From an uncultured Candidatus Saccharibacteria bacterium (GTDB taxonomy: Bacteria; Patescibacteriota; Minisyncoccia; Phycocordibacterales; UBA9973), in NCBI GenBank assembly GCA_964527235.1, contig CAZGNC010000003.1, positions 47,809 to 111,808 on the forward strand: a stretch of 64,000 nucleotides of DNA, given 5' to 3'. The notes under the pieces are model-generated. The model was not told the DNA's origin and did not search any database. It was given only the letters and a program-made list of their open reading frames with translations. This document shows, piece by piece, positions 4,764 to 38,420 of this stretch (within the stretch, counting starts at the first letter, position 1; the number at the start of each line of letters is the position of its first letter). The position numbers were made by a program, and so were the translations under genes.

Positions 4764-4792
4764 TTGACAAATGTGAGGGATAATAATATCCT
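4764..4792 (+). promoter_or_regulatory. sigma70-like promoter TTGACA-17-TATCCT upstream of GC-rich cassette 1
   Basis: TTGACA 4764-4769, TATCCT 4787-4792. Confidence 0.45.
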
Positions 4793-4839
4793 CTTCGTTA
4801 GATAGCAACTTGCGCTGAAACCCGAACCGGGAGGGGCAC

Positions 4840-5253
4840 ATGAAGATCACCATAGCGATAACCATCGTGTTGTCTGCCATCTTGGTAGCAATGCCCAACC
4901 CGTTTGGGTTAAGAGAAGTAAGAACGCCTGATCCACGTGAAGGACGAATCGTGAATCCTGATTCGTCGGGAGGATGGAGTGCGTACGCCAAGGGCCACGC
5001 CAAGACTCGATGCGGCGTGTACTTCTTCCGCGAGAAAGAGGGGCTGCGATTCGTATTCAGTCGCCCAGACTCGGTACGAAGAAGCAATGGTGCGAGAGAT
5101 ACTGAAAGACTCGCACTTGCAAAGAGCTTCACCGCTCAAGGAGCAGAAGAAGACACGCCTAGCGCAATCGAGCTAGGAGGATGGAAGTTCGAAATACGAA
5201 TACCAGAGGAGGACACGAAGAGTATGTCGTGTCTCAAGCAACCCCCGCCGTGA
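4840..5253 (+). CDS. GC-rich cassette 1: small protein (137 aa) with N-terminal signal/TM segment, unknown function
   Basis: SD GGGAGGGG 5 nt upstream of ATG. N-terminus MKITIAITIVLSAILVAMP is hydrophobic. GC about 55 percent versus about 37 percent flanks. Stop codon lies inside the first of two terminator hairpins. Could alternatively be a structured ncRNA. Confidence 0.4.
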   Translation: MKITIAITIVLSAILVAMPNPFGLREVRTPDPREGRIVNPDSSGGWSAYAKGHAKTRCGVYFFREKEGLRFVFSRPDSVRRSNGARDTERLALAKSFTAQGAEEDTPSAIELGGWKFEIRIPEEDTKSMSCLKQPPP

Positions 5254-5315
5254 ATATAGCCGGCGGGGGAAGATCGAAAGCAACACACCAAAAAATATTT
5301 GGTGTGCTTTTATTT
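5242..5315 (+). terminator. tandem hairpin terminators (CCCCCGCCG..CGGCGGGGG then CACACC..GGTGTG + T-run); second also serves murE on the minus strand
   Basis: 9-bp GC stem then 6-bp stem followed by CTTTTATTT. Confidence 0.6.
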
Positions 5316-8013: not shown

Positions 8014-8032
8014 AGGCTATAAAGAACAAAAT

Positions 8033-18894: not shown

Positions 18895-21800
18895 CTACAC
18901 CACTAATTGCTTAGCTATGAATCCTCTCCTGGAGGTAAACTTACCCGTCGAAAGAATTTTTGTATAAGTACCATCAGGGTTTCTTCTTTCAACTACCATA
19001 TGGTATTCACCAGGTGGAACCAAACAACAATAACGCCCATACTGATCTGTCACGGTACGTCGTATTTCTAAATTAACATTTGAATGGAATAGGCGAACTA
19101 GTGCAAATGCCAAAGGAGCCCCATCTGCCTTAAATTTCACAACACCGTACTTACTTGTTTTTGCTACACTTCTAAGACCCAAGAGGGCAAATTGCAAAGC
19201 CATGATAGTAACATTAAGTGATGACGGATTAATATAGACGTTAGCTAAGGAAAATACTAAGCCTGCGTAGAACAAGAACCCAGTAATGTGAACCCAGAAA
19301 ATCTCATGCTTCGAGAAAAAATACATACCCTTTTTGGTAACTTTATAGTATTGATTCTGGTCGAAATTTTCTTGATCCATTGGTATATCCATACTAACGA
19401 ACGCTTTGTCTGGCGTAACGGTAAATGAATTCCCGAAATAAAGATTGTCATAAATAATATCTTTACCTGTTGGTGAAATTTTCTTAGAAGGAAATGAGAA
19501 ATTTTCTTTTCTAACTTCCAAAACATATTCTCCTGGAGGTGCCACAAACCCATACCTACCATCGATATCTGTAACTGTAGAAGCAATTTCTTTACCTGAT
19601 AAATCCTTCAAAACAACGAGCACAGGATCAAGCGGTTGCTTGGTTTCGCTATCATATACTGTGCCCCAATTTCTCCTTCTCTTTCTAGTGCCAAAAATAG
19701 AGATTGTATCAAGCCAAGATCTCTTGAAACTCAAAACTGAAAATAATGCTGGATATGTGAAGGTCTCCAAAGCCACCAAACCACCTGCTGTAGCCATACC
19801 TACCACAGGTACAATAATCATAACTTCTTCTCCAGCCTCCCGTGCAACATTTAAAACCAAGCCAGAGGCCTTTCTTAAGGCTTTAGCGCCTGTACTTAAC
19901 ACACTGCGTATACTTTCTTCTAGGGATACCTGTAGGGTGATGACTTCATCCTCAGGAGTAGTAAGTGGTACCACAGGATCTTCTACAACACTAGGTGAAT
20001 TTTCAGTAGAATCTTCAGGTGAAGTGGGCGGTGTATCGACTACAGGTGGAGTAGGTTTCTTGTCTTCTTTTTTGGATTTATTTTTATCTGGGTTAGTTAA
20101 TCGTGAATTTAAAGGAGCTGGAGAATCTACCGGCATTGATAATAATTCTGTAAGTGCCCTTAGTGTTCGAGTGCTCCTGCTTCCGCTAGAACCACCCCCA
20201 GAAGGAGCTGGTGTGTAGTAAATAACAACTGCTTTGTTGGCAGCTAGATTGGTGGCTGGTGTGAAATCTGACATAGCATTGCCATACTCATCGTTTATTG
20301 TTCCAGATATCGATAGAACTTCTAAGTCTGAAGAAATATCTCCAGTTTGTGCAGTATAGTTGCATGTACCAGTTGTAGAACTAGTTACAGTAAAAGTACA
20401 GGTCCTGTCAGTTGCCCCAGTTTCTAAAGTTACAGTTACAACCCCCACAGAAGTTACCGCTTCGGAAAAAGTAACATCAATGTCTATAACTTCGCCGACA
20501 GTATAAGATCCATCTGCCTTGTCTGAAGATACATTTGTTATTGTTGGCGCTGTTGTATCTATAACAAATGCGACAGCACCTCCATTCGCAGTGGAGTACG
20601 ATGATGTCGCTCCCGAGTTGTCTTCGGTGCGAACTCTCCAGTAGTACGAACCGCCACTTAAAGTCTGCCCAGCTGTTCCTGTTGAATAAGACCCAGACCC
20701 AGCTGCTTGACCAACAGTGAAAGAGAAAGCTCCTTGAGCTGCTAATGCAGATGTGTAATCCACCACCAAGCTACCGAAGTTAGAAGAATCATCTATTTCG
20801 ATTTTGTATTTTACGGTGTCAGATCCATCGCTATCACTCAAAGAGAAAGTAAGCGTAGGTGTGGTGTCACCTGTAGTAGAACCATCTACATAACCTGCCC
20901 CACCTAGAGACGAGGGCGCGTCAGGATTACTGTTGAATCCCCAACCAGTATTATTGCCACCATTAGTAATGTTAAGTCCAGACACAGGTATAGTGGTAAC
21001 ATTTATGTTGTTCGAGTCTGTGACACTAAGATATGATATTGTGCGAGTGCCCTGTGGATCTAGCTCCCATTGATTAGTAGGCGAATTAGATACTAGAGAA
21101 AGCAGAGAGCCACTTTGACCATTTAGAGTCATCGTGCCCGTGATGGTTTGCGTACCGTTGTTTGCAAAAGTTAGAGTGTCTGCAGAAGAAACCGATTTGG
21201 TTAAATTTCGAAAAGTTGTAGAGCCAAGTATCGACTGCGAAGTTCCGTCGAGAGTTACGGTGCCCGTGCGAGGAGTGAATGTCCCAGAGTTACTCCAGTT
21301 GCCTCCAACAGTCATGTTGTAAGGAGTTGCTGTGGCGTCTAGGGTGCCTGCAGTAATTGTTAAGTTACCATTGATATCAAGTGTAGCAGGCAGAGAAAAT
21401 GTGTCGGTAGCGCCGTCAGTACTATTTATAGTTAAGTGATGATACGCATAGTTTTTAAGAGTGTATGAATCTGCACCAGCGTCACCGTCACCTGTATAGA
21501 GAACAGTAGACCCAGAAGCGAGTGAAGGATAAGTCGCGTTAGCTGTGATGGTTTCATTGCCTCTTAATTTCAATGTTCCAGAAGCGCCGACTGTAAATAC
21601 CCCAGAAGATCCATTCACTGTCACACTGTTACCATTCAAATTTAAAGTTCCCTGTGTTAAAACTAAATCCTGATTCGCGGCATCTAGGGTAAAGGTAGAA
21701 AGAAGTTGCACTTCTCCACTCGACTTATTTATCGTCATGTCACCATTAAAGACTGTTGCGGATGCGGAAGAAAAAGTTTGCGTAGAAGCAGACCCGAGAA

Positions 21801-23328
21801 ATCTGATAGGTGCATTTAATGTACTTATTGTAGTAATAACAGCATTACCGTATAAATCTATCGTACCTGTTGAAGCAATTGAGGAAATAGTTGCATTAGC
21901 AGTAAATGTGCCATTAACCACGATAGTGTCCCCAGCAGCTATGGTAAGCGTACTTGCTGTCGCATCAAAAGTAAAGTTATAAAAATCTTCGCTAGTAACA
22001 ACGTCCAAGGTGCAATCAGAACTAATAGAAGTAGTACCAGTGCCTTCGTTAAAAGTACCACCAGATTTAGTAAAGTTTCCAGATACACTAAAGTTCCCAG
22101 TCGGTGCATTAAATGTTCCGTCAGTTAAAGTAAACTTCGATGCAGAAAGTGTCGACGTAGAAACATTCACAATCTGAGAAGCATTATTAATTCTTAGCTC
22201 GGGCATACGTCCACTCGTGTGACTTATGCTCTGTGTCGCAGCTTGATCGAACAACACAACAGCAGTTCCACCACTTCCGTTGGTCACGACGACATTTCCT
22301 CTTGGGTTAATAGTACCAGTACTAACAGACATACTAGTACCATTAAATGTTAGGGTGCCATTCACAACCAAAGTATCTCCACTGGCAACGATAACATTAC
22401 TTGCGTTTGCTTCGAAAGATAGATTATAGAAATCTTCACTAGTTACAACGTCAACTGTAGAGTCGGAAGTTATTGTAACTGTGCCTGTGCCCTCATTAAA
22501 TGTGCCTCCAGATTTAGTGAAATTTCCAGACACATTAAAAACTCCCGTCGGCGCGTTGAATGTTCCAGTGGTTAAAGTAAATTTCGAGGCAGAAAGAGTG
22601 GAAGTCGAAACGTTCACCACTTGCGAAGCGTTGTTGATTCGCAATTCGGGCATTCTTCCACCGGTGTGGCTGATACTCTGAGTCGCAGCCTGATCGAAGA
22701 GAACTATCGCAGTTCCACCACTTCCGTTGGTTACGACAACGTTTCCTTTAGGGTTAATGGTGCCTGTACTTACCGACATACTCGTACCATTAAACGTTAG
22801 AGTACCATTTGCTACTATCGTGTCCCCGCTAGCTACAGTTACGTTACTAGCAGAAGCCTCGAAAGATATGTTATAGAAATCCTCACTCGTCGCCACGTCG
22901 ATGGTGCCATCTGTATAGAATCTAAGAGTTCCAGTACCCTCAGTGAAAGTACCTCCTGATTTTGTAAAATTTCTAACTGATAAAGTATTAGAACCTTGAG
23001 CAAATGTCCCAGCTGCTTGAGTATATGCTGTAGTCACAGTAAGGCTTCTATCTTGTGTAATAGTACCTGTATAACCACTATTTATATTTAAGTTTGTAAC
23101 TGACCCAGCAAATCCAGCATCAATAGTTGCATCTTTGGTGCTAAGACCTTCGAATGTCGCGATATCAGAAGATGTTGGACATATGTCAGGCCCATCCCAG
23201 TTCGCACAAGTGCTCCAGTTGTTATCTCCACCGCCACCATCCCAAGTTCTTGTGGCAGCAAAGGCTTCTATAGAATAGAAAAGTTGAGTAAAAAATATTA
23301 GAGCTAAAATAAAGAGAAATTTCTTCAT
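18895..23328 (-). CDS. giant (1477 aa) secreted repetitive surface protein (beta-strand repeats, FN3-like region, two CarbopepD_reg-like domains, C-terminal TM)
   Basis: Signal peptide MKKFLFILALIFFTQLFYSIEAFA. TRTWDGGGGDNNWSTCANW N-terminal motif resembling the start of autotransporter-associated PATR-type repeats. Three roughly 135-aa tandem repeats. Gly/Ser linker. Two ...DGRYGF/YCC..PGEY carboxypeptidase-regulatory-like domains. Hydrophobic C-terminal segment. Confidence 0.7.
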   Translation of the reverse strand: MKKFLFILALIFFTQLFYSIEAFAATRTWDGGGGDNNWSTCANWDGPDICPTSSDIATFEGLSTKDATIDAGFAGSVTNLNINSGYTGTITQDRSLTVTTAYTQAAGTFAQGSNTLSVRNFTKSGGTFTEGTGTLRFYTDGTIDVATSEDFYNISFEASASNVTVASGDTIVANGTLTFNGTSMSVSTGTINPKGNVVVTNGSGGTAIVLFDQAATQSISHTGGRMPELRINNASQVVNVSTSTLSASKFTLTTGTFNAPTGVFNVSGNFTKSGGTFNEGTGTVTITSDSTVDVVTSEDFYNLSFEANASNVIVASGDTLVVNGTLTFNGTSMSVSTGTINPRGNVVVTNGSGGTAVVLFDQAATQSISHTSGRMPELRINNASQIVNVSTSTLSASKFTLTDGTFNAPTGNFSVSGNFTKSGGTFNEGTGTTSISSDCTLDVVTSEDFYNFTFDATASTLTIAAGDTIVVNGTFTANATISSIASTGTIDLYGNAVITTISTLNAPIRFLGSASTQTFSSASATVFNGDMTINKSSGEVQLLSTFTLDAANQDLVLTQGTLNLNGNSVTVNGSSGVFTVGASGTLKLRGNETITANATYPSLASGSTVLYTGDGDAGADSYTLKNYAYHHLTINSTDGATDTFSLPATLDINGNLTITAGTLDATATPYNMTVGGNWSNSGTFTPRTGTVTLDGTSQSILGSTTFRNLTKSVSSADTLTFANNGTQTITGTMTLNGQSGSLLSLVSNSPTNQWELDPQGTRTISYLSVTDSNNINVTTIPVSGLNITNGGNNTGWGFNSNPDAPSSLGGAGYVDGSTTGDTTPTLTFSLSDSDGSDTVKYKIEIDDSSNFGSLVVDYTSALAAQGAFSFTVGQAAGSGSYSTGTAGQTLSGGSYYWRVRTEDNSGATSSYSTANGGAVAFVIDTTAPTITNVSSDKADGSYTVGEVIDIDVTFSEAVTSVGVVTVTLETGATDRTCTFTVTSSTTGTCNYTAQTGDISSDLEVLSISGTINDEYGNAMSDFTPATNLAANKAVVIYYTPAPSGGGSSGSRSTRTLRALTELLSMPVDSPAPLNSRLTNPDKNKSKKEDKKPTPPVVDTPPTSPEDSTENSPSVVEDPVVPLTTPEDEVITLQVSLEESIRSVLSTGAKALRKASGLVLNVAREAGEEVMIIVPVVGMATAGGLVALETFTYPALFSVLSFKRSWLDTISIFGTRKRRRNWGTVYDSETKQPLDPVLVVLKDLSGKEIASTVTDIDGRYGFVAPPGEYVLEVRKENFSFPSKKISPTGKDIIYDNLYFGNSFTVTPDKAFVSMDIPMDQENFDQNQYYKVTKKGMYFFSKHEIFWVHITGFLFYAGLVFSLANVYINPSSLNVTIMALQFALLGLRSVAKTSKYGVVKFKADGAPLAFALVRLFHSNVNLEIRRTVTDQYGRYCCLVPPGEYHMVVERRNPDGTYTKILSTGKFTSRRGFIAKQLVV
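21850..23000. repeat. about 405-bp tandem repeat x ~2.8 (about 80-90 percent identity) inside the giant surface-protein gene
   Basis: Repeated blocks such as gcagttccaccacttccgttggt[c/t]acgac[g/a]ac[a/g]tttcct and ttatagaaatc[t/c]tcact[a/c]gt visible at about 22250, 22700 and 22900. Confidence 0.75.
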
Positions 23329-23446: not shown

Positions 23447-24409
23447 TTATTTCCAAGGGAATTCCCTACCGAAATGCCCCCAGGTGCAGGTGTCAGCGTA
23501 CTTAACTTCTTTGAGTTTGAGATATTCTCTGATACCTCGTGGGCTCAAGTCATAACCCACAATTTCCTCTTCGACGCCATCGACTACAACCACTGCCATG
23601 ACTGGTAGAGACTTACCTATAGCATAAGCAAGCTTCACAAATACTTCCCTCGGCTGTAGGCCTACGGACGAAGCCTTAGCTCCACGTGATTCTAAAATTT
23701 CAACCGCAATACGGCGCGCCATGTACGCACCAGAGCGATCTACCTTGGTATAATCTTTACCCGAGAAAGAGCCTCCGCCGATAGGCACCTCAGGCCCATA
23801 ATTATCTATCACGAGCTTCCTACCTGAGAGCCCGGTGTCCGCATCGAACCCTCCCTGGTTCCATTCTCCAGCAGGATTGATTAAATAATCTCTCGCAGGA
23901 ATTATGCTCTGCACGAGTTTGAGCAATTCTTCACTCTTTGTATTTTGGAAACTAGCAACAACGGTCGTGACTTCTCCATCCTCTACTGTGACCTGAGTCT
24001 TGCCGTCATACGGATACACTTCATAAATCTTCTGACATAAATTTCTCGCAAGCACATACTCGAGCGGTAGATGCTCTGGTGTCTCGCGCGTTGCATAGCC
24101 CTTCATAATGCCTTGATCCCCGGCACCACCTGCGTCTACACCTTTCGCAATCTCAGGACTCTGTAGAGCAATATTTGAAATAACTTTATACTCAGAACCA
24201 ACTATGTCTTTAACAATTTTTTCTATATCTATTTTTGCACTTGTTGTCACCTCACCGTTGATAGTAATCAAATTGTGCCCACCCATGACTTCTATCGCTA
24301 CTCGACTATCTACGTCTTGCGCGAGGTACGCATCCAAGATACTATCCGCGATAAAATCGCAGATTTTATCTGGATGCTTAGGGCTAACAAATTCTGCTGT
24401 CTTAATCAT
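23447..24409 (-). CDS. metK: S-adenosylmethionine synthetase (short form)
   Basis: HPDKICDFIADSILDA, GAGDQGIMKGYA and GGGSFSGKD motifs. Confidence 0.85.
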   Translation of the reverse strand: MIKTAEFVSPKHPDKICDFIADSILDAYLAQDVDSRVAIEVMGGHNLITINGEVTTSAKIDIEKIVKDIVGSEYKVISNIALQSPEIAKGVDAGGAGDQGIMKGYATRETPEHLPLEYVLARNLCQKIYEVYPYDGKTQVTVEDGEVTTVVASFQNTKSEELLKLVQSIIPARDYLINPAGEWNQGGFDADTGLSGRKLVIDNYGPEVPIGGGSFSGKDYTKVDRSGAYMARRIAVEILESRGAKASSVGLQPREVFVKLAYAIGKSLPVMAVVVVDGVEEEIVGYDLSPRGIREYLKLKEVKYADTCTWGHFGREFPWK

Positions 24410-24425
24410 AAATTAGAAATTTTAT

Positions 24426-24917
24426 TTACGCCTTCGGTGGCATATCTACTCCTGCCCAGAGATTACTAGTGCCGATAGATTCATTGCCGTTTGATTTAAT
24501 ATACAAGAAAAGTTGCATCTTGTAAGCCACAAGATTTTTAAGCACGCCGAGCAACTGCATCGCAAGTGGTGCGGTGCTTCCCCATATAGTAGACTCACGT
24601 GTCATATCTTCTTCTGCAAGTTCGCCAACTTTGTCTTTCAAGAAATCTGCCTGCTCATCCATCTTCGCTGAGAAATTTTCGAATGTTACTGTTTCTACAT
24701 TCTTTGCAAGTTCTATATATAAATTTTGATCTCCTGCGATGTATGCACTGACACTAGTGTGCACCACATGACCTAAGTATTGCATGAGCTCTAGAGTTGA
24801 ACGCTGTTTAGGTGTTGGGCGATATTCCAGCATACCTGGAGTTACTTTCTCTGCTAAGTGTTTGATAATATCTATCTCCTTGAGCGCACTCTTTATGTAT
24901 TGTTCTTTGGTAATCAT
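24426..24917 (-). CDS. hypothetical protein (DinB/YfiT-like four-helix bundle?)
   Basis: ORF only; weak resemblance to the DinB_2 family. Confidence 0.3.
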   Translation of the reverse strand: MITKEQYIKSALKEIDIIKHLAEKVTPGMLEYRPTPKQRSTLELMQYLGHVVHTSVSAYIAGDQNLYIELAKNVETVTFENFSAKMDEQADFLKDKVGELAEEDMTRESTIWGSTAPLAMQLLGVLKNLVAYKMQLFLYIKSNGNESIGTSNLWAGVDMPPKA

Positions 24918-25005
24918 AGAAATGATTATACTATGTATCTAACTAAAACAGAAAACCGCCCCAAAATGCAATATTGGACAGAAAACCATAACCCCTGACC
25001 CCCTA

Positions 25006-25033
25006 TTGACATTATTTGTGAATTGTGTAGAAT
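25006..25033 (+). promoter_or_regulatory. sigma70 promoter TTGACA-16-TAGAAT for cassette 2
   Basis: TTGACA 25006-25011, TAGAAT 25028-25033. Confidence 0.5.
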
Positions 25034-25106
25034 ACCAAAACTGCTCAAGGGGCCGGACGAGCGTCCGGAAGCCCGAAAGGCACAGCTCTTTCAGGAGGAT
25101 ACCAAC

Positions 25107-25304
25107 GTGAGCCAGCGCACCGAACCGCACAACCCGGCACAGGACCCGAACGTTTCCTCGCTTATCGCTCCGACCACTCCGACGACCTCCAGCGTGACCG
25201 GCGACAACTCGAGCGGCGACAACAACGGCGGCGGGCGCGACGACGCCGAGCGCGCGGCCGACCAGAGCGATCCGGCGACGAGCCCGGACAACGTCGGCGG
25301 CTGA
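25107..25304 (+). CDS. GC-rich cassette 2: 65-aa acidic low-complexity peptide ending VGG (GTG start)
   Basis: SD AGGAGG 25093-25098, 8 nt before GTG. 5' UTR hairpin CCGGACG/CGTCCGG. Product SQRTEPHNPAQDP...PTTPTTSSVTGDNSSGDNNGGG...PDNVGG. Confidence 0.35.
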   Translation: MSQRTEPHNPAQDPNVSSLIAPTTPTTSSVTGDNSSGDNNGGGRDDAERAADQSDPATSPDNVGG

Positions 25305-25360
25305 CCTCTCCCGAGGCGCCGAAGCAACATCGGGACGGAATACAACCCGTCCCACAAGAA

Positions 25361-25398
25361 GGGGCATCGCAAACATCGCGGTGCCCCTTTCCACGTTT
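25361..25398 (+). terminator. terminator GGGGCATCGC-aaacat-GCGGTGCCCC + TTTCCACGTTT (copy 1)
   Basis: 10-bp stem (one G.U) plus T-rich tail; nearly identical to the copy at 25699-25736. Confidence 0.7.
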
Positions 25399-25428
25399 AG
25401 ACCCAATCCTATTAACACAACTCTACCA

Positions 25429-25456
25429 TTGACATTCTGTCTTGGTAGTGTAGAAT
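25429..25456 (+). promoter_or_regulatory. sigma70 promoter TTGACA-16-TAGAAT for cassette 3
   Basis: TTGACA 25429-25434, TAGAAT 25451-25456; paralogous to the cassette-2 promoter. Confidence 0.5.
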
Positions 25457-25528
25457 ATACATTGAAAGTCCTGATTCCGACATCGATGATCGGAAGTCCG
25501 GGGCACCGTACAACCAAGGAGGCTCCTG

Positions 25529-25681
25529 ATGGCCTACATCCGCAGCACCGACCCAAGGCCCGTCGTTGATAAAGACGACAACAAGAAGGCCGGCCTCGGA
25601 GACAGAGACATCGTCACAGTCGACACCGCGCCAGCACACGACCCGGCAGCTAACGTCAACCTGGCGGCTGGCGGGTACTGA
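25529..25681 (+). CDS. GC-rich cassette 3: 50-aa acidic peptide MAYIRSTDPRPVVDKDDNKKAGLGDRDIVTVDTAPAHDPAANVNLAAGGY
   Basis: SD AAGGAGG 6 nt before ATG 25529; not in the ORF track (under 60 aa); diverged duplicate of cassette 2. Confidence 0.35.
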   Translation: MAYIRSTDPRPVVDKDDNKKAGLGDRDIVTVDTAPAHDPAANVNLAAGGY

Positions 25682-25698
25682 AGTTCGCATCCCACAGG

Positions 25699-25736
25699 GG
25701 GGCACCGCAACATCGCGGTGCCCCTTTCCACGTTTT
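25699..25736 (+). terminator. terminator GGGGCACCGC-aacatc-GCGGTGCCCC + TTTCCACGTTTT (copy 2)
   Basis: Perfect 10-bp stem with T tail. Confidence 0.75.
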
Positions 25737-25754
25737 ATACCAACTTTTTAAATT

Positions 25755-26267
25755 TTATTTTACGCAGGTCTCTGGAGTATATGTATACAGTGTAGGCTCA
25801 CCGACATAATCCGGCACGAGGATGTTCTCACCATTTATTTTCTTATCTTCTAGAACCCATCTTTTTTTAACTAAATTTTTATCTGCGAAAGTATAGACTT
25901 CTAACTCTTTACCTTGAGAGCCTTCGACTGTGTACGAGTAAGTGAGTTCCATTTCATTATCTATTGTATTACCAGAAAGTTTCCCCTCGAAGCCATTGCT
26001 CATATCCGGACCTACCTGAGTCCCCTTCTTAGTACCCGTAACTTGCGTACCATTGAAATCAAGCACCACGTGCTCCTCTGAGCTGTACGGTGCAACCTCT
26101 GTTGCTTGCTGTATGCGCACGAAACAATACTGCCCTGAGGTCGGGATACTAGAAGAAAGTTCTGGCACAACTTGCACCACTTCTGCTGATTTATTTTTAG
26201 TACTAAGATATACCACAGCCCCTACTCCTAGAACCAACACGATAAAAATTATTATTTTTGTTTTCAT
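25755..26267 (-). CDS. membrane-anchored or lipoprotein-like hypothetical protein
   Basis: N-terminal MKTKIIIFIVLVLGVGAVVYLS hydrophobic segment. Confidence 0.4.
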   Translation of the reverse strand: MKTKIIIFIVLVLGVGAVVYLSTKNKSAEVVQVVPELSSSIPTSGQYCFVRIQQATEVAPYSSEEHVVLDFNGTQVTGTKKGTQVGPDMSNGFEGKLSGNTIDNEMELTYSYTVEGSQGKELEVYTFADKNLVKKRWVLEDKKINGENILVPDYVGEPTLYTYTPETCVK

Positions 26268-26663: not shown

Positions 26664-26692
26664 TATGGTAAGGATAGATAGGCAAAAGAAAA

Positions 26693-26732
26693 GCCCCGCC
26701 GAGAAAAGCGCGGGAGCTTTTCTCGGCGGGGC
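26693..26732. terminator. 17-bp perfect inverted repeat GCCCCGCCGAGAAAAGC-gcggga-GCTTTTCTCGGCGGGGC (bidirectional)
   Basis: A/T runs on both sides; terminates cassette 4 on the minus strand. Confidence 0.75.
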
Positions 26733-26750
26733 GATATCGCCCTACCATTG

Positions 26751-26885
26751 TTACTCATTGAAATCCTGATCCTCATCCTTGGGGAAAAGGATCATCTTCA
26801 TGGCAGCGGGGACACCCATCTTGTACCCCCACACCGCCAGAAATACAACACCAACAAGGACCAACACCCAAGAGAGCGTACTCAC
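26751..26885 (-). CDS. GC-rich cassette 4: 44-aa single-TM peptide with acidic tail (type I toxin-like) MSTLSWVLVLVGVVFLAVWGYKMGVPAAMKMILFPKDEDQDFNE
   Basis: GTG start 26885 with SD GGAGGTG (26891-26897) 5 nt upstream. Promoter TTGACT(26940-26945)-16-TAGAAA(26918-26923) on the minus strand. Terminator immediately downstream. Confidence 0.4.
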   Translation of the reverse strand: MSTLSWVLVLVGVVFLAVWGYKMGVPAAMKMILFPKDEDQDFNE

Positions 26886-26941
26886 GAGACCACCTCCAGT
26901 TGAGTGAGACTATAATATTTCTACTACAAAAAACACCAAAG

Positions 26942-27166
26942 TCAATCCTCAATGACTATGAGTTTCGATGGGCTATGATGCCCGTTCACTATGCGCACTT
27001 TATTTCTAGGAATTTCTAAACGCTCGGCGAGGATCTCGAGCACTCGAATATTTGCCATATTCCGCTCGGCTTCTTCTCGCACAGAAATTTCAAAGTGGTC
27101 ATCACTTTTCTGCAAGAAAATTTCTTTCTTCACCCCCGCGGTGACTTTGACGTGGATGTATCTCAC
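26942..27166 (-). CDS. DUF167 (YggU/UPF0235) family protein
   Basis: [74 protein letters not shown], a 74-aa ORF read as the YggU/DUF167 fold from this general pattern; no defining motif identified. Confidence 0.55.
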
Positions 27167-27705: not shown

Positions 27706-28620
27706 CTAGATAAGATCCGCAAACTTTATCGCTTTATTCTGACTCCAATCCATAATTTTGACATACCTTCCGTTATGTTTATTCGGTCTATTATATTTAC
27801 AACCTTCACACTCATATTTTTCAACAACTTCAGGTTTTTCTTCAAACAGTGTCGACAGGCCTTTGATGATTTTAGTTTCATGATGGCAACTCATAGGTAT
27901 AACATACTTTAAACCATCCATTTGGAAGATATTCCAGCTTATAATCTCTGCAAATTCTTGTTGTATCTTAAATGTTGGTATTCGCTTAAACTTAGCCTTG
28001 TAATAATCAATAAGTGTGTAAAGTAAATTCTCGCGCGCAAGCAACACGTTATCACCCTGCCATTCATATCCATAACTTGCCCTGAAAGATTCTTTTGCCC
28101 AAAAAATCCATTCTTTTTTAGAATTACAATACTTTGAAATGATACGTAATTTTTTATCCAAAAAACCAACACGATTGTTTAATTTAATTAATTTACCAGT
28201 ATGTGCCATCGGATTGTAACGACTGACAATAAAAGGTGCTTCTCCGCAAGTTATTTCTAATTTTAATTCACGTACATAATCTTGCCAATTATTTTTATTT
28301 GGCAACTTATCTATTGCTTTATTAATTTGATCAACAATTTTTATTGGTGTAAAAACTTCTGCCCTGTCTTTTGTACGATGACGTTGCTCTTCTAAACTTT
28401 TTGCAGCGCGTGGCTGAATAAGCAAATTATATTTGCTTGTGACTAATTTAGATGTAATATTTTTATCACACAAAAATTCTTTTCCAAACTTTTCATAAGA
28501 ATCTGTCGCCCAAATAATATTCTTTTTCGTCGTATGATCTAGAAGTAAGATACCAAGCAAATCACCATTTCGATGTAATGTATTTTCGAATATATCAATA
28601 TTTTTCCTCGAGGTATTCAT
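27706..28620 (-). CDS. defence-operon gene Z: protein with gamma-class MTase motif X/I-like N-terminus (AEVFTPIKIVDQI...LEITCGEAPF) and C-terminal Cys-rich zinc ribbon; no NPPY
   Basis: Start ATG lies 4 nt after the stop of gene Y (translational coupling). CHHETK...YECEGCKYNRP cysteine cluster. Confidence 0.45.
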   Translation of the reverse strand: MNTSRKNIDIFENTLHRNGDLLGILLLDHTTKKNIIWATDSYEKFGKEFLCDKNITSKLVTSKYNLLIQPRAAKSLEEQRHRTKDRAEVFTPIKIVDQINKAIDKLPNKNNWQDYVRELKLEITCGEAPFIVSRYNPMAHTGKLIKLNNRVGFLDKKLRIISKYCNSKKEWIFWAKESFRASYGYEWQGDNVLLARENLLYTLIDYYKAKFKRIPTFKIQQEFAEIISWNIFQMDGLKYVIPMSCHHETKIIKGLSTLFEEKPEVVEKYECEGCKYNRPNKHNGRYVKIMDWSQNKAIKFADLI

Positions 28621-28624
28621 GTTT

Positions 28625-31600
28625 TTATGACATTGCTTTTAGATGAGTCTCAATAAAGTCAATTTCTTTCTTATCTAGACCATACTTTTTATATAGCTGA
28701 TGATCAATTTCGGCAATTGATTTTGACCAATTGATGTCTGAGTTGTTTGTGAAATCTTGAATCGGAACGTTTCTCCACACCTTTCCTGGATTATGTTGTG
28801 TAACTTTTAGTGTTTGAAGTAAAGTTCTACAAAATTTTGTTTTTAAATAAGAAACGCAATTGACGGCTTCTGTTTTTTTTACAAAAGAACCGATTCCGAT
28901 ATAGCTTTGTGTATAACCTACTAATTTATCACCTATAAATGGTGTGGATAAAATTTCGCCAAATTTACCTGAACCACTTGATTTTGGTAGTATCACTTTA
29001 AAGTTATCGACATTGGTGTGAGCATCTAAATACTTCTTATTAATATACTTTGAGACTCTTTTATTATTGATCAAGCCAAAAATTTTTACATTATTAGCTT
29101 TGTCACTACTTTCAGTAAATACTTTTAGTTGTTCAAATATTGGTGTAGTTAAACGTTTTTCTTGACCTCCACTTCCTATTATTTTTTTATAATTTGGGTA
29201 ATCTGCATATAGGGCATCTAAATTAAACTTGCTTTGTGTATATATAATTAGCGATAGATCAGAAAACATTATGCCCTTTTTCACTTTGTTTAGAATTGAG
29301 TTTAATTCATGGTAACTTGTAAACGATCCTATCGGACCAATATCAGCATTTGCGTCACGATACGTTATCGCTACACCCCCTTTAATATCAGTATTTGGAA
29401 ATATAGTGGATGAATTTTGCTCATAATATATAACTGATACATGTATATCTGCGAGCATTTTCTCATTCCATTCCTTTGGGGTTTTACCTGCTTTAAACAG
29501 AAAACGAGCAGGATGAATCAATGCCACCTTATCTGCCAGTTTGTATGATTCATCAATAAACAGATGATAGATCGGATTATCACTCGTGTCTTTTGTTTGG
29601 ATTTGGTATGGTGGGTTTCCTACAACTGCTGTGAATTTCATATCTTTATCTCTTAAATTAAATTTTTCTAATAATTCTACTTTCAGGTTGTAATCTTTAT
29701 AATTTTCTTTCTGCTGCAGTTTCTGAATTAAATCTTCAATATAAACAATGTTAGTTTTTGCACCTTTATTATACCCAGCTAAAGTTCTTTGCGTAATACT
29801 TTGCGCCATTGGACTTTTACAAAGCACGTATATGTTATCTTTCAATAAATCACCCCATATCTTTTGAGATATTTTCTCTTCAGGCTTTTTAATCTTTATA
29901 AGCTGCCTTGAGTACACGTTGTAAGCGGCTAATAATGGATAAAGTCCGGATTTCGAGTTTATTTCCAGTATCTTTGTGTCGTCCTGCGACCAAACACTTG
30001 TGTCAGCATCGTGACTTTTCCATTCTGGTTTTCCTGTTTTATCTGTAACTCCACTACAAAAATCATGCCCTCCAAACGCTAGCGTTAAATGTTTATTTAC
30101 AACACTCCACGGGGTGAGCACCGTCTCTTTATCAGGATTTTTAAAAGTACTGAATATTTCAGCAATTGCTTGTACTCTTTCGGTTGGCAAAAGATCATCG
30201 CAATCAAAAGCTTTAGCGCGAATACTATGAGCAACTCCTTTGAAAACATCTTCATCATAATACTTAGTAAACTCTGTAAATTTATCTTTTGATAAACCAG
30301 TTGGCATGAATTCCTTCCAAGAATCTTCGTCAACAAGATCAATAAACCTTTGAAGTGTTATAATTTCTCGCACCGACACATCAGCGCCGTACACCAACAT
30401 AGGCATACGAATACTTACTGCACGCAATATATTAATAGCATTTTTCTTTTGTTCGAAAGCTTCTTTTTTCTTTTTTAAATTTTCTTTTTCCTCCTCTGAT
30501 AACTCTAAATTTTTCTTTTTCTTACGTTCAGCCTCCTCTGCTTTCTGTAACTGAAGATCATCCATTCCAAGTTCATTAATCTTAATCTCATTTATTTTTT
30601 CGCTTGATGATGTCCCGATGATAGATTTAAGTTCATTAAATTTAGACATCTCCATTTCATCAAGCTTTAATAATTCATCGTTGTATAGCTTAGGATCATC
30701 AAAGCCATTTCGACTTACACGTTCAATAATAGCTTTTTTGAGTTGACCCAACATTACCTCAACATCATATGGTTTCATTACTCCGCCCTTGGCGGCGAGA
30801 ATTGGACAGAAGTTTAAAAATTCTCTCATCGCATCTTTTTGCTCAGGTGAATTAATTTTTCCTGATTTATGATTAAGCTCTATTGCTTCAGCTACTAATT
30901 TCAAGGTGCGATCCGGTGCAAAATCAAACACATATCCTTGAGTTTTTAGTTTACCGTCTATTTTTGCAGGGGTTTGGCAACGAAATGCTGTCTGTAAATA
31001 AGTTGTTGCGGAACTAGTATCAGACATCATAAAAACTGCTGTCCATTCAGGAACAGATGCCCCAGTAGTCAAACGTTGACCTGTAAGCGTAATGGTATAT
31101 TCATGATTTTTAATTGCCTTAGTAACACGATCTTTGGCAATTTTATCCTCCTCATCGTCACGACTATCTCCAGAAATATTTACCACACCGAACCCGCTGG
31201 AGCCAAAAACTGAATGGTCTTTGAGCAACTTCTCCATCGCCTCGATAACCTTAACCCTATTAGGTAAAAGCCACAGAGAGTGTTTATTGTAATTACGATA
31301 TTCTTTTGTTGCGTAAGGGAATTTAGTCTGTAATTTTTCATCTACTAGTAAATCTAAGAATCTTTTGACCATTGGCTCGTGAACAAATTCAGCCGTATCT
31401 TTACCCTCATCGTCCTTACGCACACGAAAAAACTCATGAAACCTAAAAGCCCCATCAAGAGAGTCGTGAAAATTTTCACCCAGACTGCCGATATGGCTGG
31501 CAAATGTATCTACATCATATGTAAATATACTAAGGGACGGCAATTCCGCGTATGGGTTTGGTATTCCGGGGTTGCGCTCGTCCCAATTTAACTTTTCTTC

Positions 31601-32650
31601 CTGTTCCATTACATAATCCCAAGTGAAAATATCTTCTTCTTCGTGCTTATGTAGAATATTGAATGGGGTTCCAGAAAGTTGTAGTACAAAATTTGCTGGT
31701 ATTTTTAAAAAAGTAGCATCCCCAAGAGCACTTTGTGTTCCCTCGTGAGCCTCATCAACAATCAACATATCCCAAGCGGTATCAAAAACTTCATCGTTTT
31801 TATCAAAACCTCTCGCCTGAGACCCAGCTGACTTATCTTCTACTACTCGTTTCGACAGTCGTAGGTCTTGTAGTGAAGCAAAGTAAACAAAAGGTTTTTT
31901 ACCCTTACTCAGAGTATTAATGTGTTCTCCTATTGTTGTTGAAGAAAATTCATAATTTGCACCAGCTAGCACCTTATTGTAATCATCGTACCAATCACTA
32001 CTAACACTAGGACGGTGAGTCACAATCAGCACTTTCTTCATTTCATTTTCTTTGGCCACCTGCATCGCTGCAGATGTTTTACCGAAACGCATTTTTGCAT
32101 TCCAAAGAAAATGCTTACGTTTTTTCTTAATAGCCTGAGTTGTCTTTTTTATGGCCTCAAGCTGATTGGGGCGAAATTGAAATTCAGAAACTGCTGAGAC
32201 TGTTCTCTCCATATTAGATAATGCCACCCTGCCTTCTTTTACAGCTTGAATTGCCTTTTTTGCAATATCCAAACTAACTTCAAACCACTCAGAATGTGAA
32301 TTTTTAATATTTTCAGCCTTGCGTTTATAACCAGAACGCTTAAGTACTTCATGCACATCATGGTCAGAAAAATATTTGTTTTCGTTAGTAATGGCAATTT
32401 CCGCATGTTCAAGAATGTAAGGGATGTCTGCCGTTTTAGTTTGCTGTATTATGCGCTTGTGAGCTGCTAAATCGATTTCTTCTCGTGTTGAATTTAAGGA
32501 TACTGTAGTCGCACTACCAATTTTTAACCGGCCCTTATGTTGTTCTCCCGGAACAGAATAAATGTAAATTACACCATATGAGAAAGTTTCATTTATTTCG
32601 CTAGATTTGTAAGGGTTATTTTCTGCTTCCGGTTTTATAATCTTGTTCAT
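28625..32650 (-). CDS. defence-operon gene Y: T5orf172/MUG113 (GIY-YIG-like)-SF2 DEAH helicase-N6-adenine DNA methyltransferase fusion (Type ISP-like)
   Basis: N-terminal YGVIYIYSV...GRLKIGSATT...EWFEV (T5orf172-like). Walker A RFGKTSAAM and DEAH box LIVDEAHEG. Helicase C motifs. VVGNPPYQ (MTase motif IV) at about 29603-29626. ATG at 32650 chosen over 32740 to avoid overlap with gene X. Confidence 0.7.
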   Translation of the reverse strand: MNKIIKPEAENNPYKSSEINETFSYGVIYIYSVPGEQHKGRLKIGSATTVSLNSTREEIDLAAHKRIIQQTKTADIPYILEHAEIAITNENKYFSDHDVHEVLKRSGYKRKAENIKNSHSEWFEVSLDIAKKAIQAVKEGRVALSNMERTVSAVSEFQFRPNQLEAIKKTTQAIKKKRKHFLWNAKMRFGKTSAAMQVAKENEMKKVLIVTHRPSVSSDWYDDYNKVLAGANYEFSSTTIGEHINTLSKGKKPFVYFASLQDLRLSKRVVEDKSAGSQARGFDKNDEVFDTAWDMLIVDEAHEGTQSALGDATFLKIPANFVLQLSGTPFNILHKHEEEDIFTWDYVMEQEEKLNWDERNPGIPNPYAELPSLSIFTYDVDTFASHIGSLGENFHDSLDGAFRFHEFFRVRKDDEGKDTAEFVHEPMVKRFLDLLVDEKLQTKFPYATKEYRNYNKHSLWLLPNRVKVIEAMEKLLKDHSVFGSSGFGVVNISGDSRDDEEDKIAKDRVTKAIKNHEYTITLTGQRLTTGASVPEWTAVFMMSDTSSATTYLQTAFRCQTPAKIDGKLKTQGYVFDFAPDRTLKLVAEAIELNHKSGKINSPEQKDAMREFLNFCPILAAKGGVMKPYDVEVMLGQLKKAIIERVSRNGFDDPKLYNDELLKLDEMEMSKFNELKSIIGTSSSEKINEIKINELGMDDLQLQKAEEAERKKKKNLELSEEEKENLKKKKEAFEQKKNAINILRAVSIRMPMLVYGADVSVREIITLQRFIDLVDEDSWKEFMPTGLSKDKFTEFTKYYDEDVFKGVAHSIRAKAFDCDDLLPTERVQAIAEIFSTFKNPDKETVLTPWSVVNKHLTLAFGGHDFCSGVTDKTGKPEWKSHDADTSVWSQDDTKILEINSKSGLYPLLAAYNVYSRQLIKIKKPEEKISQKIWGDLLKDNIYVLCKSPMAQSITQRTLAGYNKGAKTNIVYIEDLIQKLQQKENYKDYNLKVELLEKFNLRDKDMKFTAVVGNPPYQIQTKDTSDNPIYHLFIDESYKLADKVALIHPARFLFKAGKTPKEWNEKMLADIHVSVIYYEQNSSTIFPNTDIKGGVAITYRDANADIGPIGSFTSYHELNSILNKVKKGIMFSDLSLIIYTQSKFNLDALYADYPNYKKIIGSGGQEKRLTTPIFEQLKVFTESSDKANNVKIFGLINNKRVSKYINKKYLDAHTNVDNFKVILPKSSGSGKFGEILSTPFIGDKLVGYTQSYIGIGSFVKKTEAVNCVSYLKTKFCRTLLQTLKVTQHNPGKVWRNVPIQDFTNNSDINWSKSIAEIDHQLYKKYGLDKKEIDFIETHLKAMS

Positions 32651-32654
32651 AAAA

Positions 32655-33629
32655 TTATTCTTTAAACTCTCTAAAATGCCTACCGAACACGTTTTGGAAA
32701 AGAATTGCCTTTTCGTATAGCCACATGAAATATTTTTCATTTTCCGAAGGATCAGATATGTTTGCTACTTTTTTCTCAATAACAATCCTAGAGGCTACTG
32801 GTGCATCGATACATTCAATTGTTTCACCAATCTCCTTTTCGATCTCTGTTTTTTTGTCACATAAAAATTTAAATAATTCCTTATCTCTATTTATATATAT
32901 TTCACAACCCAATATATTTTCACTAAAAAGAGCGCGGAGGGAGATATGCCCTGCAGAACTACCCATGCTTACATCATACCAATGCTGAGGCCTTGGCGTC
33001 CTCAGACGAATCTGAGTGTCAATTTTTTGAACAAAATCTCTGAATTTATTCCAAAATTCTAACTGTTGTAATTTAGTATCCGTAAGCGATCCACTTACAG
33101 CACTTGTCTTTACTGTCTTTGCCCATTCGTTTGGACTGACCATTATTTCAAATTTTGGAGCAGGGTTTGAGCCCTCTATCTGCCATAGTTCAAGTTTAAT
33201 TAAAAAGAAACCAATATTCTCATCGGTGTGATCATTTAACCAATCTATCGCTTTTTGGTGTTCGTCGCGCAAATCTCTAACAATCCAAATAATAATCTCT
33301 GCGTCGTAGCCAGAGGCATAAGTAATAATCTTGCCTAGATGGTCGTGATTTGCATCTTCTAACTGGTTTTCGATTATTATTTTTCTACCCGACATTTCCT
33401 CCTCAGCTAAAATATCGACGCTGAACTTACCAACACTTGCCTCAGTTTTAATTAATTTTATGTCGACACCTATTTCTTCACTCAAAATTTCCAAATTATC
33501 TTCTTGCGATAGCCATTTTGTAAAATCTGGTTCTAGCGACCATACATCTCTCGGGTCAACTTTTGTTATTCTTGATAGATCCTTTTTTGTGTACATTTTA
33601 TTTCTTCCAATCCTTAATTTGTAACCCAC
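32655..33629 (-). CDS. defence-operon gene X: PD-(D/E)xK-like N-terminal region + DUF4268-like C-terminal region
   Basis: VGKFSVDILAEEE...GRKIIIENQL resembles a D..(D/E)xK nuclease core. Stop is 4 nt before the start of Y. Confidence 0.4.
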   Translation of the reverse strand: MGYKLRIGRNKMYTKKDLSRITKVDPRDVWSLEPDFTKWLSQEDNLEILSEEIGVDIKLIKTEASVGKFSVDILAEEEMSGRKIIIENQLEDANHDHLGKIITYASGYDAEIIIWIVRDLRDEHQKAIDWLNDHTDENIGFFLIKLELWQIEGSNPAPKFEIMVSPNEWAKTVKTSAVSGSLTDTKLQQLEFWNKFRDFVQKIDTQIRLRTPRPQHWYDVSMGSSAGHISLRALFSENILGCEIYINRDKELFKFLCDKKTEIEKEIGETIECIDAPVASRIVIEKKVANISDPSENEKYFMWLYEKAILFQNVFGRHFREFKE

Positions 33630-37717: not shown

Positions 37718-37746
37718 TTGACGAAAGAGCGAAAATGTGCTATACT
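37718..37746 (+). promoter_or_regulatory. sigma70 promoter TTGACG-17-TATACT for cassette 6
   Basis: TTGACG 37718-37723, TATACT 37741-37746. Confidence 0.5.
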
Positions 37747-37763
37747 GTATGTAGTAGTGTCCA

Positions 37764-38084
37764 ATGGGCACCGTGTCCTTTGGAAACCCAACCCCGACCG
37801 GGCGGAGAATAATGCTTGTAAAGATTCGCTGGAACACAAAGGTGCTGAGACTGTGTCTCAAGCACGCCAAGATCACCCGTCACGAGAAAAATGTCATCGG
37901 AAAAGCGATGACTACGGGTGAAGGGCTGGTGAATGCATTACGCATACTGGCCCAAATCCTCGCCTTCGTGGCAATGTCCATGGAGGCAAAGGAGGAAGTA
38001 ACTCACGTTGTCGTCGAACGTCATCGTGAGGCATCTGGTGCCGACCTTATCGAAGAAGAGGTTGGCGTCGGAATCGCCGCCTAG
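37764..38084 (+). CDS. GC-rich cassette 6: 106-aa (or 90-aa from ATG 37812) small protein, unknown function
   Basis: GC-rich ORF immediately after the promoter; the alternative start at 37812 has GGCGGAG upstream; shares its terminator with cassette 7. Confidence 0.35.
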   Translation: MGTVSFGNPTPTGRRIMLVKIRWNTKVLRLCLKHAKITRHEKNVIGKAMTTGEGLVNALRILAQILAFVAMSMEAKEEVTHVVVERHREASGADLIEEEVGVGIAA

Positions 38085-38090
38085 CGGTCA

Positions 38091-38138
38091 TCGCCGCCGA
38101 GGAGCCGCCAACCGCGCTCTCCGGCGGCTCTTTCGTTC
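38091..38138 (+). terminator. terminator CGCCGCCGAGGAGCCGCCaACCGCGCTCtCCGGCGGCTC + TTT (copy 1)
   Basis: 8-bp GAGCCGCC/GGCGGCTC stem; duplicated at 38375-38420. Confidence 0.6.
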
Positions 38139-38158
38139 AATAACTTAGGTGAAAAACC

Positions 38159-38371
38159 ATGAAAGAAGAAGAACGGAAAGAGCTTGAAAAGGCACTGAGA
38201 GACATCAAGCATCTAGCAATCAGATGTACGACCGATGCCTCGGGACACCTCAAGCTCTCAGAAGGAGACAGGGCCTTGATGGCAAAATACGCAGAAGCGG
38301 TCATCCAGATATTGAGCACAGCGCTCGCGACCGCAAGAAGTTTCAGGAAGAAGAAGCGAAAGAAGAAGTAA
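38159..38371 (+). CDS. GC-rich cassette 7: 70-aa helical protein with poly-Lys/Arg tail (…FRKKKRKKK)
   Basis: SD AGGTGA 7 nt upstream of ATG; followed by the second terminator copy. Confidence 0.4.
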   Translation: MKEEERKELEKALRDIKHLAIRCTTDASGHLKLSEGDRALMAKYAEAVIQILSTALATARSFRKKKRKKK

Positions 38372-38374
38372 CAC

Positions 38375-38420
38375 GCCGCCGAGGAGCCGCCGACCGCGCT
38401 CCCGGCGGCTTTTCAGTTGT
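38375..38420 (+). terminator. terminator copy 2 (CGCCGCCGAGGAGCCGCCgACCGCGCTCCCGGCGGCT + TTT)
   Basis: Near-identical to 38091-38138. Confidence 0.6.

Follow-up and report, generated by a model that had tools for sequence, protein, structure and literature searches.

The window analyzed here, a 64,000-nt stretch of contig CAZGNC010000003.1 from an uncultured Candidatus Saccharibacteria bacterium, contains a pair of GC-rich cassettes arranged in tandem on the + strand at positions 25005-25736, each of which comprises a promoter, a 5' leader, a Shine-Dalgarno (SD) sequence, a short open reading frame (ORF), and a 3' hairpin. Judging from sequence comparison, the cassettes belong to a small lineage-specific family of Paceibacteria, in which a conserved non-coding shell encloses a hypervariable, acidic coding core with an extreme GC content at the third codon position (GC3), and this family matches no known family among those searched. 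With moderate confidence, we favor the interpretation that the two cassettes (units A and B) are paralogous, independently transcribed protein-coding mini-genes of this family, in each of which a near-consensus sigma-70 promoter would be followed by a leader of ~66 nt, a strong SD, an acidic ORF of 46-94 codons, and a GC-rich 3' stem-loop.

Architecture of the cassette pair

The initial annotation had described two tandem GC-rich units with TTGACA and TAGAAT boxes, a leader motif, an SD, an acidic ORF, and a 3' hairpin, and all of these elements were found on the + strand, although the units measured ~394 nt (A) and ~308 nt (B) with a promoter-to-promoter distance of 423 nt, rather than about 400 bp each. 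The region represents the GC maximum of the whole window (75% over 150 nt, exceeding the rRNA), the GC content of the units being 63-71% versus 41% for the chromosome. Promoter A (ctATTGACATT, 25003-25035, + strand) carries the -35 box TTGACA at 25006-25011 and the -10 box TAGAAT at 25028-25033, while promoter B (ccATTGACATT, 25426-25458, + strand) carries the corresponding boxes at 25429-25434 and 25451-25456, with the -10 box lying within GTGTAGAATA and a 16-nt spacer in both cases. Each scored 11/12 against the sigma-70 consensus in a promoter scan, and a repeat finder detected a 30-nt promoter repeat with 77% identity between the units. The identity was limited to ATTGACATT and GTGTAGAATA, and the sharing of the promoter claimed in the initial annotation thus applies to these two elements but not to the spacer, the similarity of which was at chance level. 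A search of IMG/VR with the composite promoter pattern returned eight matches, which proved to be strong promoters of the usual kind in phages, several preceding what appear to be tRNA-like sequences; since the pattern also occurs in such unrelated phages, promoter similarity alone is consensus-driven and not diagnostic.

The 5' leader of unit A (25040-25106, + strand), ~67 nt long from the inferred start site, contains the motif CGGAAGCC and the SD AGGAGG (25093-25098), and was folded into a two-tier stem-loop at 25049-25074 (GGG.CCGGAC-GAGC-GUCCGG-AAG-CCC). That of unit B (25463-25528, + strand), ~66 nt long and thus differing from the leader of unit A by no more than 1 nt, contains the motif CGGAAGTCC and the SD AAGGAGG (25516-25522), and likewise forms a two-tier stem-loop (25468-25504). 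The leaders are followed by ORF A (25107-25304, + strand), which starts with GTG, stops with TGA, and encodes 65 aa (MSQRTEPHNPAQDPNV...SDPATSPDNVGG) ending in NVGG, and by ORF B (25529-25681, + strand), which starts with ATG, stops with TGA, and encodes 50 aa (MAYIRSTDPRPV...AHDPAANVNLAAGGY) ending in AAGGY.

In the 3' region of unit A, a first, variable hairpin (25332-25353, + strand; GGGACGG-AAUACAAC-CCGUCCC) has no counterpart in unit B, and a different hairpin was observed at the equivalent place in the two related genomes described below. The conserved 3' module of unit A (25350-25398, + strand) consists of TCCCACA, a 13-bp stem, the loop AAACAUC, and the tail UUUCCACGUUU, the hairpin core at 25361-25387 being GGGGCATCGC-AAACAT-CGCGGTGCCCC with the tail TTTCCACGTTT extending up to 25398; that of unit B (25690-25736, + strand) consists of TCCCACA, a 13-bp stem (core 25699-25724), the loop AACAUC, and the tail UUUCCACGUUUU. 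The two hairpins were identical at 37/38 positions, including a 27-nt exact repeat detected by the repeat finder, and folded with z-scores of -5.5 (A) and -5.1 (B). The 16-mer of the 3' arm occurred twice versus 0.16 occurrences expected by chance, and a degenerate hairpin pattern occurred twice versus 0.01 expected. The near-identity of the two putative terminators was therefore borne out. The GC-rich stem of an intrinsic terminator is present in both; the UUU of the hairpin pairs with the upstream GAA/AGG and is followed by CCACGUUU, leaving no free U tract, and a terminator scan with a minimum of 5 T per 8 nt called neither hairpin.

The possibility that the pair is an assembly artefact, also raised in the initial annotation, was dismissed. 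Contigs from three sequencing runs (SRR14271365, SRR14271372, and SRR14271373) were 100% identical to the window across the region, and one of the contigs examined (L091) covers 24189-25825 in one piece including both units, which excludes an assembly chimera.

The same shell in related genomes

To place the pair among relatives, contigs were chosen via the closest homologs of the neighboring DinB-like protein, which represents a conserved 163-aa family of Paceibacteria. Further members of the family were found in two of these genomes, L106 and L108, whose DinB-like proteins are 85% and 73% identical to that of the window, respectively. The cassette of L106, located on the - strand, has the promoter ctATTGACATTAT, identical to that of unit A (CTATTGACATTAT) at 13/13 nt, the leader AAGGAGCCGG...CCGGACGTCC with the SD AGGAGA, an acidic 94-aa ORF (ORF1; GC3 0.83) ending in DDDVK, and a 3' end in which a variable hairpin is followed by GGGGCGCTCGAC-AACAT-GTCGAGCGCCCC and the tail ATTTGCAC. 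Here the homologous hairpin is internal, being followed by a second acidic ORF (58 aa) and a canonical terminator. The cassette of L108 has the same promoter and leader as unit A, an acidic 46-aa ORF (GC3 0.89) ending in DPAN, and a variable hairpin followed by GAGGGTCCCCGAC-AGCAT-GTCGGGGACCCTC and the tail ATTCACGTTTATA. Both cassettes thus contain ctATTGACATT, a leader stem-loop of the form AAGGRGCCGG...CCGGAMGYCC, and a hairpin (GGGG.../...CCCC) whose loop is CA(A/G)CAU, while the (T)TCACGTTT tail is present in L108 and absent in L106.

Profiles were constructed from the 5' modules and, separately, from the 3' modules of all four cassettes. In an nhmmer search of ~1 Mb of related loci, they matched these four cassettes only, with E-values of 1e-19 to 1e-22 (5' module) and 1e-7 to 1e-11 (3' module; 2e-9 for unit A and 6e-11 for unit B). 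The leader stem-loop was kept in all four cassettes, with 93% of the cells paired versus 18-64% in slid controls and two compensatory pairs. The 3' stems differ in sequence and retain perfect complementarity, with the CA(A/G)CAU loop present in four of the four cassettes and the CACGUUU tail in three. The preservation of these modules between the units and across two further genomes points to a real constraint on elements acting at the DNA or RNA level.

Identity of the 5' modules amounted to 53% for units A and B, 57-58% for unit A versus the other genomes, and 73% for L106 versus L108. Taken together with the 37/38 identity of the 3' hairpins, this suggests that A and B are either old paralogs or arrived independently, with a recent copying or homogenization of their 3' modules. 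The distribution of the family is sporadic: in L106 and L108, the cassette lies just upstream of, and divergent from, the LemA gene; five other relatives lack a cassette and carry the DinB-like gene next to the LemA gene; and none was found at 80 MetK-anchored loci of relatives.

Coding potential and properties of the peptides

The ORFs had been noted to have diverged while the regulatory parts were conserved, and this observation was fully reproduced, also with L106 and L108 included. The protein local alignment of ORFs A and B gave z = 0.5 (2000 shuffles), their nucleotide alignment was no better than codon-shuffled controls, and the peptides were unalignable in every pair among A, B, L106, and L108. 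Despite such divergence, the ORFs bear the marks of genes. The GC contents at codon positions 1/2/3 were 0.65/0.60/0.89 in ORF A (Fisher p = 4e-5) and 0.66/0.46/0.76 in ORF B. Four of the five family ORFs showed this period-3 pattern, with GC3 values of 0.89 (A), 0.76 (B), 0.83 (L106 ORF1), and 0.89 (L108) versus 0.41-0.70 at positions 1-2 (pooled Fisher p = 5e-13), while the GC3 of 34 host ORFs of at least 200 aa was 0.38 +/- 0.06 with a maximum of 0.55. The SD-to-start spacing was 8 nt in A and 6 nt in B, and remained within 6-8 nt over A, B, L106 ORF1, and L108. In addition, GC1 exceeded GC2 in the + frame only; in the antisense frame sharing position 3, GC2 was equal to or higher than GC1, unlike in real genes. 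From these sequence features, the ORFs look translated, at present or until very recently.

A competing antisense ORF (24939-25556, - strand, 205 aa), picked by a gene caller, was rejected as Arg/Val/Gly-rich noise, crossing both promoters and hairpin A with a GC1 of 0.89. The annotation of an antisense ORF across unit A accounts for the lack of ORF A in protein databases, and this call is likely an annotation error in the public record.

The ORF A peptide has a net charge of -7 with 9% hydrophobic residues, and the ORF B peptide a net charge of -2 with 24%. Single-sequence AlphaFold2 models showed no regular structure in the former (predicted local distance difference test score, pLDDT, 56) and one 6-residue helix only in the latter (pLDDT 61), and the peptides are probably disordered. 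The sole recurrent protein feature was the DP dipeptide, observed 8 times versus 3.8 expected in the family peptides (p = 0.02), with the motif DPx0-2[NQ], picked post hoc, observed 5 times versus 0.9 expected (p = 0.0014).

Database searches

All family peptides were singletons in a collection of 15 billion proteins. In a word-indexed search of 5.8 billion protein clusters, ORF A gave no match and ORF B matched only itself. An apparent ORF B homolog of 4960 aa (P0129), found with HMMER among 1.84 billion representatives (E = 1.7e-10), was rejected, as the value resulted from a 24-bit, 23-residue match summed over ~14 tandem repeats. Searches of Pfam, PHROGs, PADLOC, NCBIfam, and PDB with the peptides returned no match, phmmer against all PDB chains yielding only noise (E = 8.1 and 0.031, unrelated enzymes). 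The Rfam search that had been called for likewise identified no family: the best Rfam 15 match to the locus was ftsZ-DE, at 21.7 bits versus a threshold of 72.2 (E = 0.14) and to hairpin B only, the L106 and L108 cassettes matched nothing, and the whole window contained the 16S rRNA gene and two tRNAs and nothing else.

At the DNA level, the 756-nt region had no blastn match in phage or plasmid collections. A 21-mer of the 3' hairpin was absent from IMG/VR; its six matches in JGI metagenomes were all attributed to chance, lying inside one coding gene of an unrelated organism with 59-65% GC. The leader-hairpin pattern had six matches in IMG/VR, four of which were chance occurrences in GC-rich coding DNA. 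The other two represent one and the same intergenic hairpin of a phage, beside an ORF of 413 aa that is presumably an integrase, and were judged unrelated, as a GC-rich ORF is missing downstream. This hairpin, AAGGGGCCGGATTGTCCCCCGGAAGTCCCGAAA (viral contig L110 9406-9433, identical in L113), shares its two-tier shape and flanking bases with the unit A leader (AAGGGGCCGGACGAGCGTCCGGAAGCCCGAAA), which is probably a coincidence.

Genomic setting

The window, with a GC content of 41%, is a chromosome segment of the Patescibacteria (candidate phyla radiation, CPR) type, of Paceibacteria/'Nomurabacteria'. Its MetK (23447-24409, - strand) was at most 87% identical to MetK of GTDB representative genomes, and nearly all of the matches were labelled Nomurabacteria, Paceibacterota, or uncultured Saccharibacteria. 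The window genes include Mur ligases, SecA, RNase J (40588-42570), GuaA, G6PD, and an Eco57I-like restriction-modification (R-M) pair, and the neighbors of the cassettes, such as MetK, the DinB-like gene, MsrA, and a DUF167 gene, represent housekeeping chromosome. The pair is bordered by the DinB-like gene (24426-24917) and a gene encoding 170 aa (25755-26267). Both units lie on the + strand, while the genes around them are almost all on the - strand, the neighbors being oppositely oriented.

Pfam scans covered 46 window ORFs and returned housekeeping families, the R-M genes being named from PADLOC and Logan gene annotations. Among these 46 ORFs, we found no integrase (Phage_integrase family, IntI), transposase, or reverse transcriptase, and no Pup ligase (PafA/Dop), ThiF/E1-like enzyme, or enzyme modifying peptides such as those of ribosomally synthesized and post-translationally modified peptides (RiPPs); the earlier statement that no ligase partner is encoded nearby thus held for the ORFs scanned. 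The cassette neighbors had no PHROG match.

The cassettes occupy a slot upstream of the DinB-like gene, the content of which differs among relatives. Near the DinB-like gene or between its neighbors, relatives carry an R-M system (L004), a Fic gene (L103), DUF5670, or a DUF397 gene (L107). The last of these, upstream of the DinB-like gene at L107 7522-8923, has a GC3 of 0.68 in a contig with 41% GC; as DUF397 is a family typical of actinobacteria, this gene suggests that variable slots gather genes from high-GC donors.

Other small GC-rich units were also observed. A second tandem pair at 37720-38420 comprises two ORFs with no mutual similarity, 37812-38084 (90 aa), which has a TTGACG...TATACT promoter to itself, and 38159-38371 (70 aa), which has no obvious promoter, each followed by a near-identical terminator (38092-38137 and 38374-38418, identical at 27/28 and 14/17 positions). 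Four stand-alone small-gene units, at 4760-5310 (137 aa), 54010-54430 (89 aa), 57914-58560 (190 aa), and 26690-26960 (- strand, 44 aa), each have an apparent sigma-70-like promoter (by eye), an SD, and a GC-rich hairpin, with GC3 values of 0.54-0.64 versus 0.38 for the host; they matched no Pfam family and do not contain the leader and 3' module of A and B. A GC-rich island at 54877-55126 includes a very basic 50-aa ORF (54906-55058, + strand; 38% Lys+Arg, GC3 0.76) just upstream of tRNA-Gln (55244-55315). In L108, an uncalled GC-rich mini-gene at 3160-3460 (- strand) consists of a basic 47-aa ORF, the hairpin GGGGCGCGGACC-ATTC-CGGTCCGCGCCCC, and a canonical terminator, and belongs to a family other than that of A and B. 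The R-M pair of the window (27706-32740, - strand), 2 kb from the cassettes, encodes a 304-aa protein matching PADLOC MTase_II (E = 1.5e-95) and a 1371-aa Eco57I-type enzyme (Pfam annotation of an identical Logan contig), and a 1477-aa surface-type protein encoded at 18895-23328 (- strand) has internal 447-nt tandem repeats of 76% identity (22000-22746).

Comparison with known systems

The cassettes resemble integron cassettes and clusters of attC sites lacking integron-integrases (CALIN) in that unrelated small orphan ORFs of deviant composition stand in tandem, each followed by a near-identical imperfect palindrome, a likeness extended by the second pair at 37.8-38.4 kb. Inspection of 25350-25398 and 25690-25736, however, revealed perfect 13-bp stems (with one G-U pair in A) without the extrahelical bases of attC sites, no RYYYAAC/GTTRRRY core sites, and the 3' tails GTTTAGA and GTTTTAT. 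Unlike integron cassettes, each unit moreover has its own promoter, and IntI or another recombinase was not found among the window ORFs scanned. A diversity-generating retroelement (DGR), with its template and variable repeats (TR/VR), was rejected on the grounds that the ORF bodies share no nucleotide similarity beyond codon-shuffled controls and that the scanned ORFs include no reverse transcriptase. Hypervariable precursor-peptide families with conserved flanks are also known, for example the prochlorosin ProcA genes. These likewise comprise several short genes with one conserved part and a hypervariable remainder, but the conserved part of the present cassettes is non-coding (promoter, leader, and 3' hairpin) rather than a leader peptide, and no modifying enzyme is encoded nearby. 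The attC, DGR, and RiPP readings, as well as the type I toxin-antitoxin (TA) and Pup-like readings considered below, each miss at least one defining feature tested.

Alternative explanations

The initial annotation had placed selection on the RNA rather than on the peptides. We consider it unlikely that the functional product is an RNA, be it a small RNA, a dual-function RNA, or a type I TA-like transcript, with the ORF being incidental or regulatory only. The non-coding modules alone are conserved between units and genomes, the conservation of the CA(A/G)CAU loop, joined by that of the CACGUUU tail in three cassettes out of four, exceeds the needs of a generic terminator, and structured RNAs often underlie GC-rich islands of AT-rich genomes. 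The constraint on non-coding elements therefore stands, but a neglect of the peptides is not supported, in view of the strong period-3 signal found exactly in the SD-led frame of four of the five ORFs, the SD and start codon kept at 6-8 nt in A, B, L106 ORF1, and L108, and the Asp-Pro motifs. The variable body showed no conserved sequence or structure, and the whole-transcript fold z-scores of only -1.8, largely contributed by the hairpins, argue against a large structured RNA, so that with no Rfam match the proposed small RNA found no support. With type I TA modules, the cassettes share a short ORF, a structured 5' leader, a strong 3' hairpin, and tandem duplication. Their peptides, however, are acidic and poor in hydrophobic residues, having no predicted transmembrane helix and no long helix in the AlphaFold2 models, and thus differ from hydrophobic toxins; no Rfam toxin or antitoxin family was matched, and the scan for antisense promoters found no strong candidate: its single - strand match scored 9/12 and lies within promoter A (25038-25011), with nothing opposite the ORFs or leaders. 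An even more remote prospect, which we consider highly improbable, is that the peptides serve as Pup- or ubiquitin-like modifiers via a Gly-Gly at the C-terminus, or as RiPP precursors whose modifying enzyme is encoded at a different locus. ORF A, with ~65 aa, an acidic and probably disordered product, and a Gly-Gly end, resembles such modifiers, it gave a weak, sub-threshold match to the ScmA precursor family (E = 0.084), and an ATP-grasp MvdD-type enzyme is encoded ~2 kb from the L108 cassette. The Gly-Gly end is nevertheless restricted to ORF A and is not the GGQ/GGE of Pup, the other C-termini being GGY (B), DDDVK (L106 ORF1), and DPAN (L108); neither Pup nor another PDB chain showed similarity, no beta-grasp fold was predicted (in low-confidence single-sequence models), and neither a ligase or depupylase (PafA/Dop) nor an E1-like or RiPP enzyme occurred among the scanned ORFs. 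Patescibacteria are not known to have proteasomes. The L108 ATP-grasp gene, moreover, has its own adjacent candidate precursor: at 7813-8934, the MvdD-type gene is directly followed by an uncalled GC-rich 36-aa ORF (MKYPQTFAALVAVKAREPVVLGATWTTPRDNDADDR), and the two may form a graspetide-type RiPP pair.

Also unlikely, if slightly less so, is a recent acquisition of foreign DNA, in which moron-like cargo derived from a donor with high GC content or from some unknown mobile element would have no adapted host role and its flanks would simply have come along. The nearest known concept for the cassettes is indeed the phage moron, an autonomous promoter-gene-terminator unit of phages and prophages with deviant GC content (Cumby et al., 2012, PMC3594210). 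The cassettes agree with this definition in having their own sigma-70 promoter, their own 3' hairpin (if it is a terminator), one small gene, and deviant GC content (63-71%, with GC3 of 0.76-0.89, in a 41% GC chromosome), and in being present or absent between relatives. Their slot is variable, holding R-M, Fic, or DUF397 genes in L004, L103, and L107, and their orientation is opposite to that of all neighboring genes. In contrast to morons, however, they lie outside any prophage: their neighbors had no PHROG match, the phage collection and IMG/VR yielded no matching DNA, and no phage, integrase, or transposase genes occurred among the scanned ORFs. The family is moreover defined by its conserved shell, around a hypervariable cargo. 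No donor was found in phages, plasmids, IMG/VR, JGI metagenomes, or the 5.8 billion protein clusters, leaving aside chance matches to coding DNA. The shell also occurs in three Paceibacteria with DinB-like proteins 72-85% identical, at the same site upstream of LemA in L106 and L108, which argues for persistence within the lineage, with a GC content that has not drifted toward that of the host.

Several points weigh against the interpretation of the units as protein-coding mini-genes. As GC-rich DNA leaves all frames open, ORF length alone is no evidence; GC3 is the same in the antisense frame with which codon position 3 is shared, and on an identical Logan contig a 192-aa antisense ORF was called in place of ORF A by one gene caller. 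The start sites, termination, and peptides are all predicted, and the term 'terminator' for the 3' hairpins is an assumption, given the missing U tract and the failed scan. The covariation and motif statistics draw on no more than four cassettes in three genomes, which makes them weak, and they are in part post hoc; a low pLDDT is a weak sign of disorder in AlphaFold2 runs on single sequences. The maintenance of a GC3 of ~0.8-0.9 in genomes with 41% GC is a further point against it.

Proposed mode of action and implications

If the units are protein-coding mini-genes, their near-consensus promoters would drive strong constitutive transcription, while the leader and the 3' stem-loops would act after transcription, in mRNA stability or termination. 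In organisms with RNase J, which is encoded in the window, 5' stem-loops protect mRNAs. The peptides, for which high expression is a guess, might act via their composition and short DP motifs; as the constraint would then fall mainly on these properties, their sequences could drift or be replaced quickly. The conserved modules would offer homology for recombination, by which cassettes could be gained or exchanged. The tandem pair may owe its origin to the insertion of another family member through recombination in the conserved 3' (or 5') module, or alternatively to an old duplication followed by gene conversion homogenizing the 3' modules. Either recombination or gene conversion would produce 3' hairpins identical at 37/38 positions alongside leaders with 53% identity.

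A bolder extension, which we regard as quite unlikely, is that the promoter-leader and 3'-hairpin modules constitute a portable expression shell and at the same time homology arms, through which short coding inserts of extreme GC3 would be captured, swapped, and stacked in Paceibacteria via recombination at the hairpin, with no need for an integrase. Such an exchange would account for near-identical hairpins around unrelated ORFs (twice in the window), for sporadic cassettes in variable slots, and for the persistence of extreme GC3 in AT-rich genomes, and, if true, it would supply ever-changing acidic disordered peptides, for example for interaction with hosts or phages.

Patescibacteria have tiny genomes with many genes of no known function and are thought to be symbionts. 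The repeated combination of unrelated ORFs with the same hairpin suggests a recombination route by which genes are added without a dedicated recombinase, and even as inert foreign cargo the cassettes would still mark the variable slots of these genomes. The present gene family is defined by its non-coding shell and not by its protein, the cores being unalignable even between adjacent copies. If expressed as mini-genes, they would likely yield abundant acidic disordered peptides, candidates for host interaction, molecular mimicry, or stress protection, and the family would offer a tractable case of very fast small-protein turnover.

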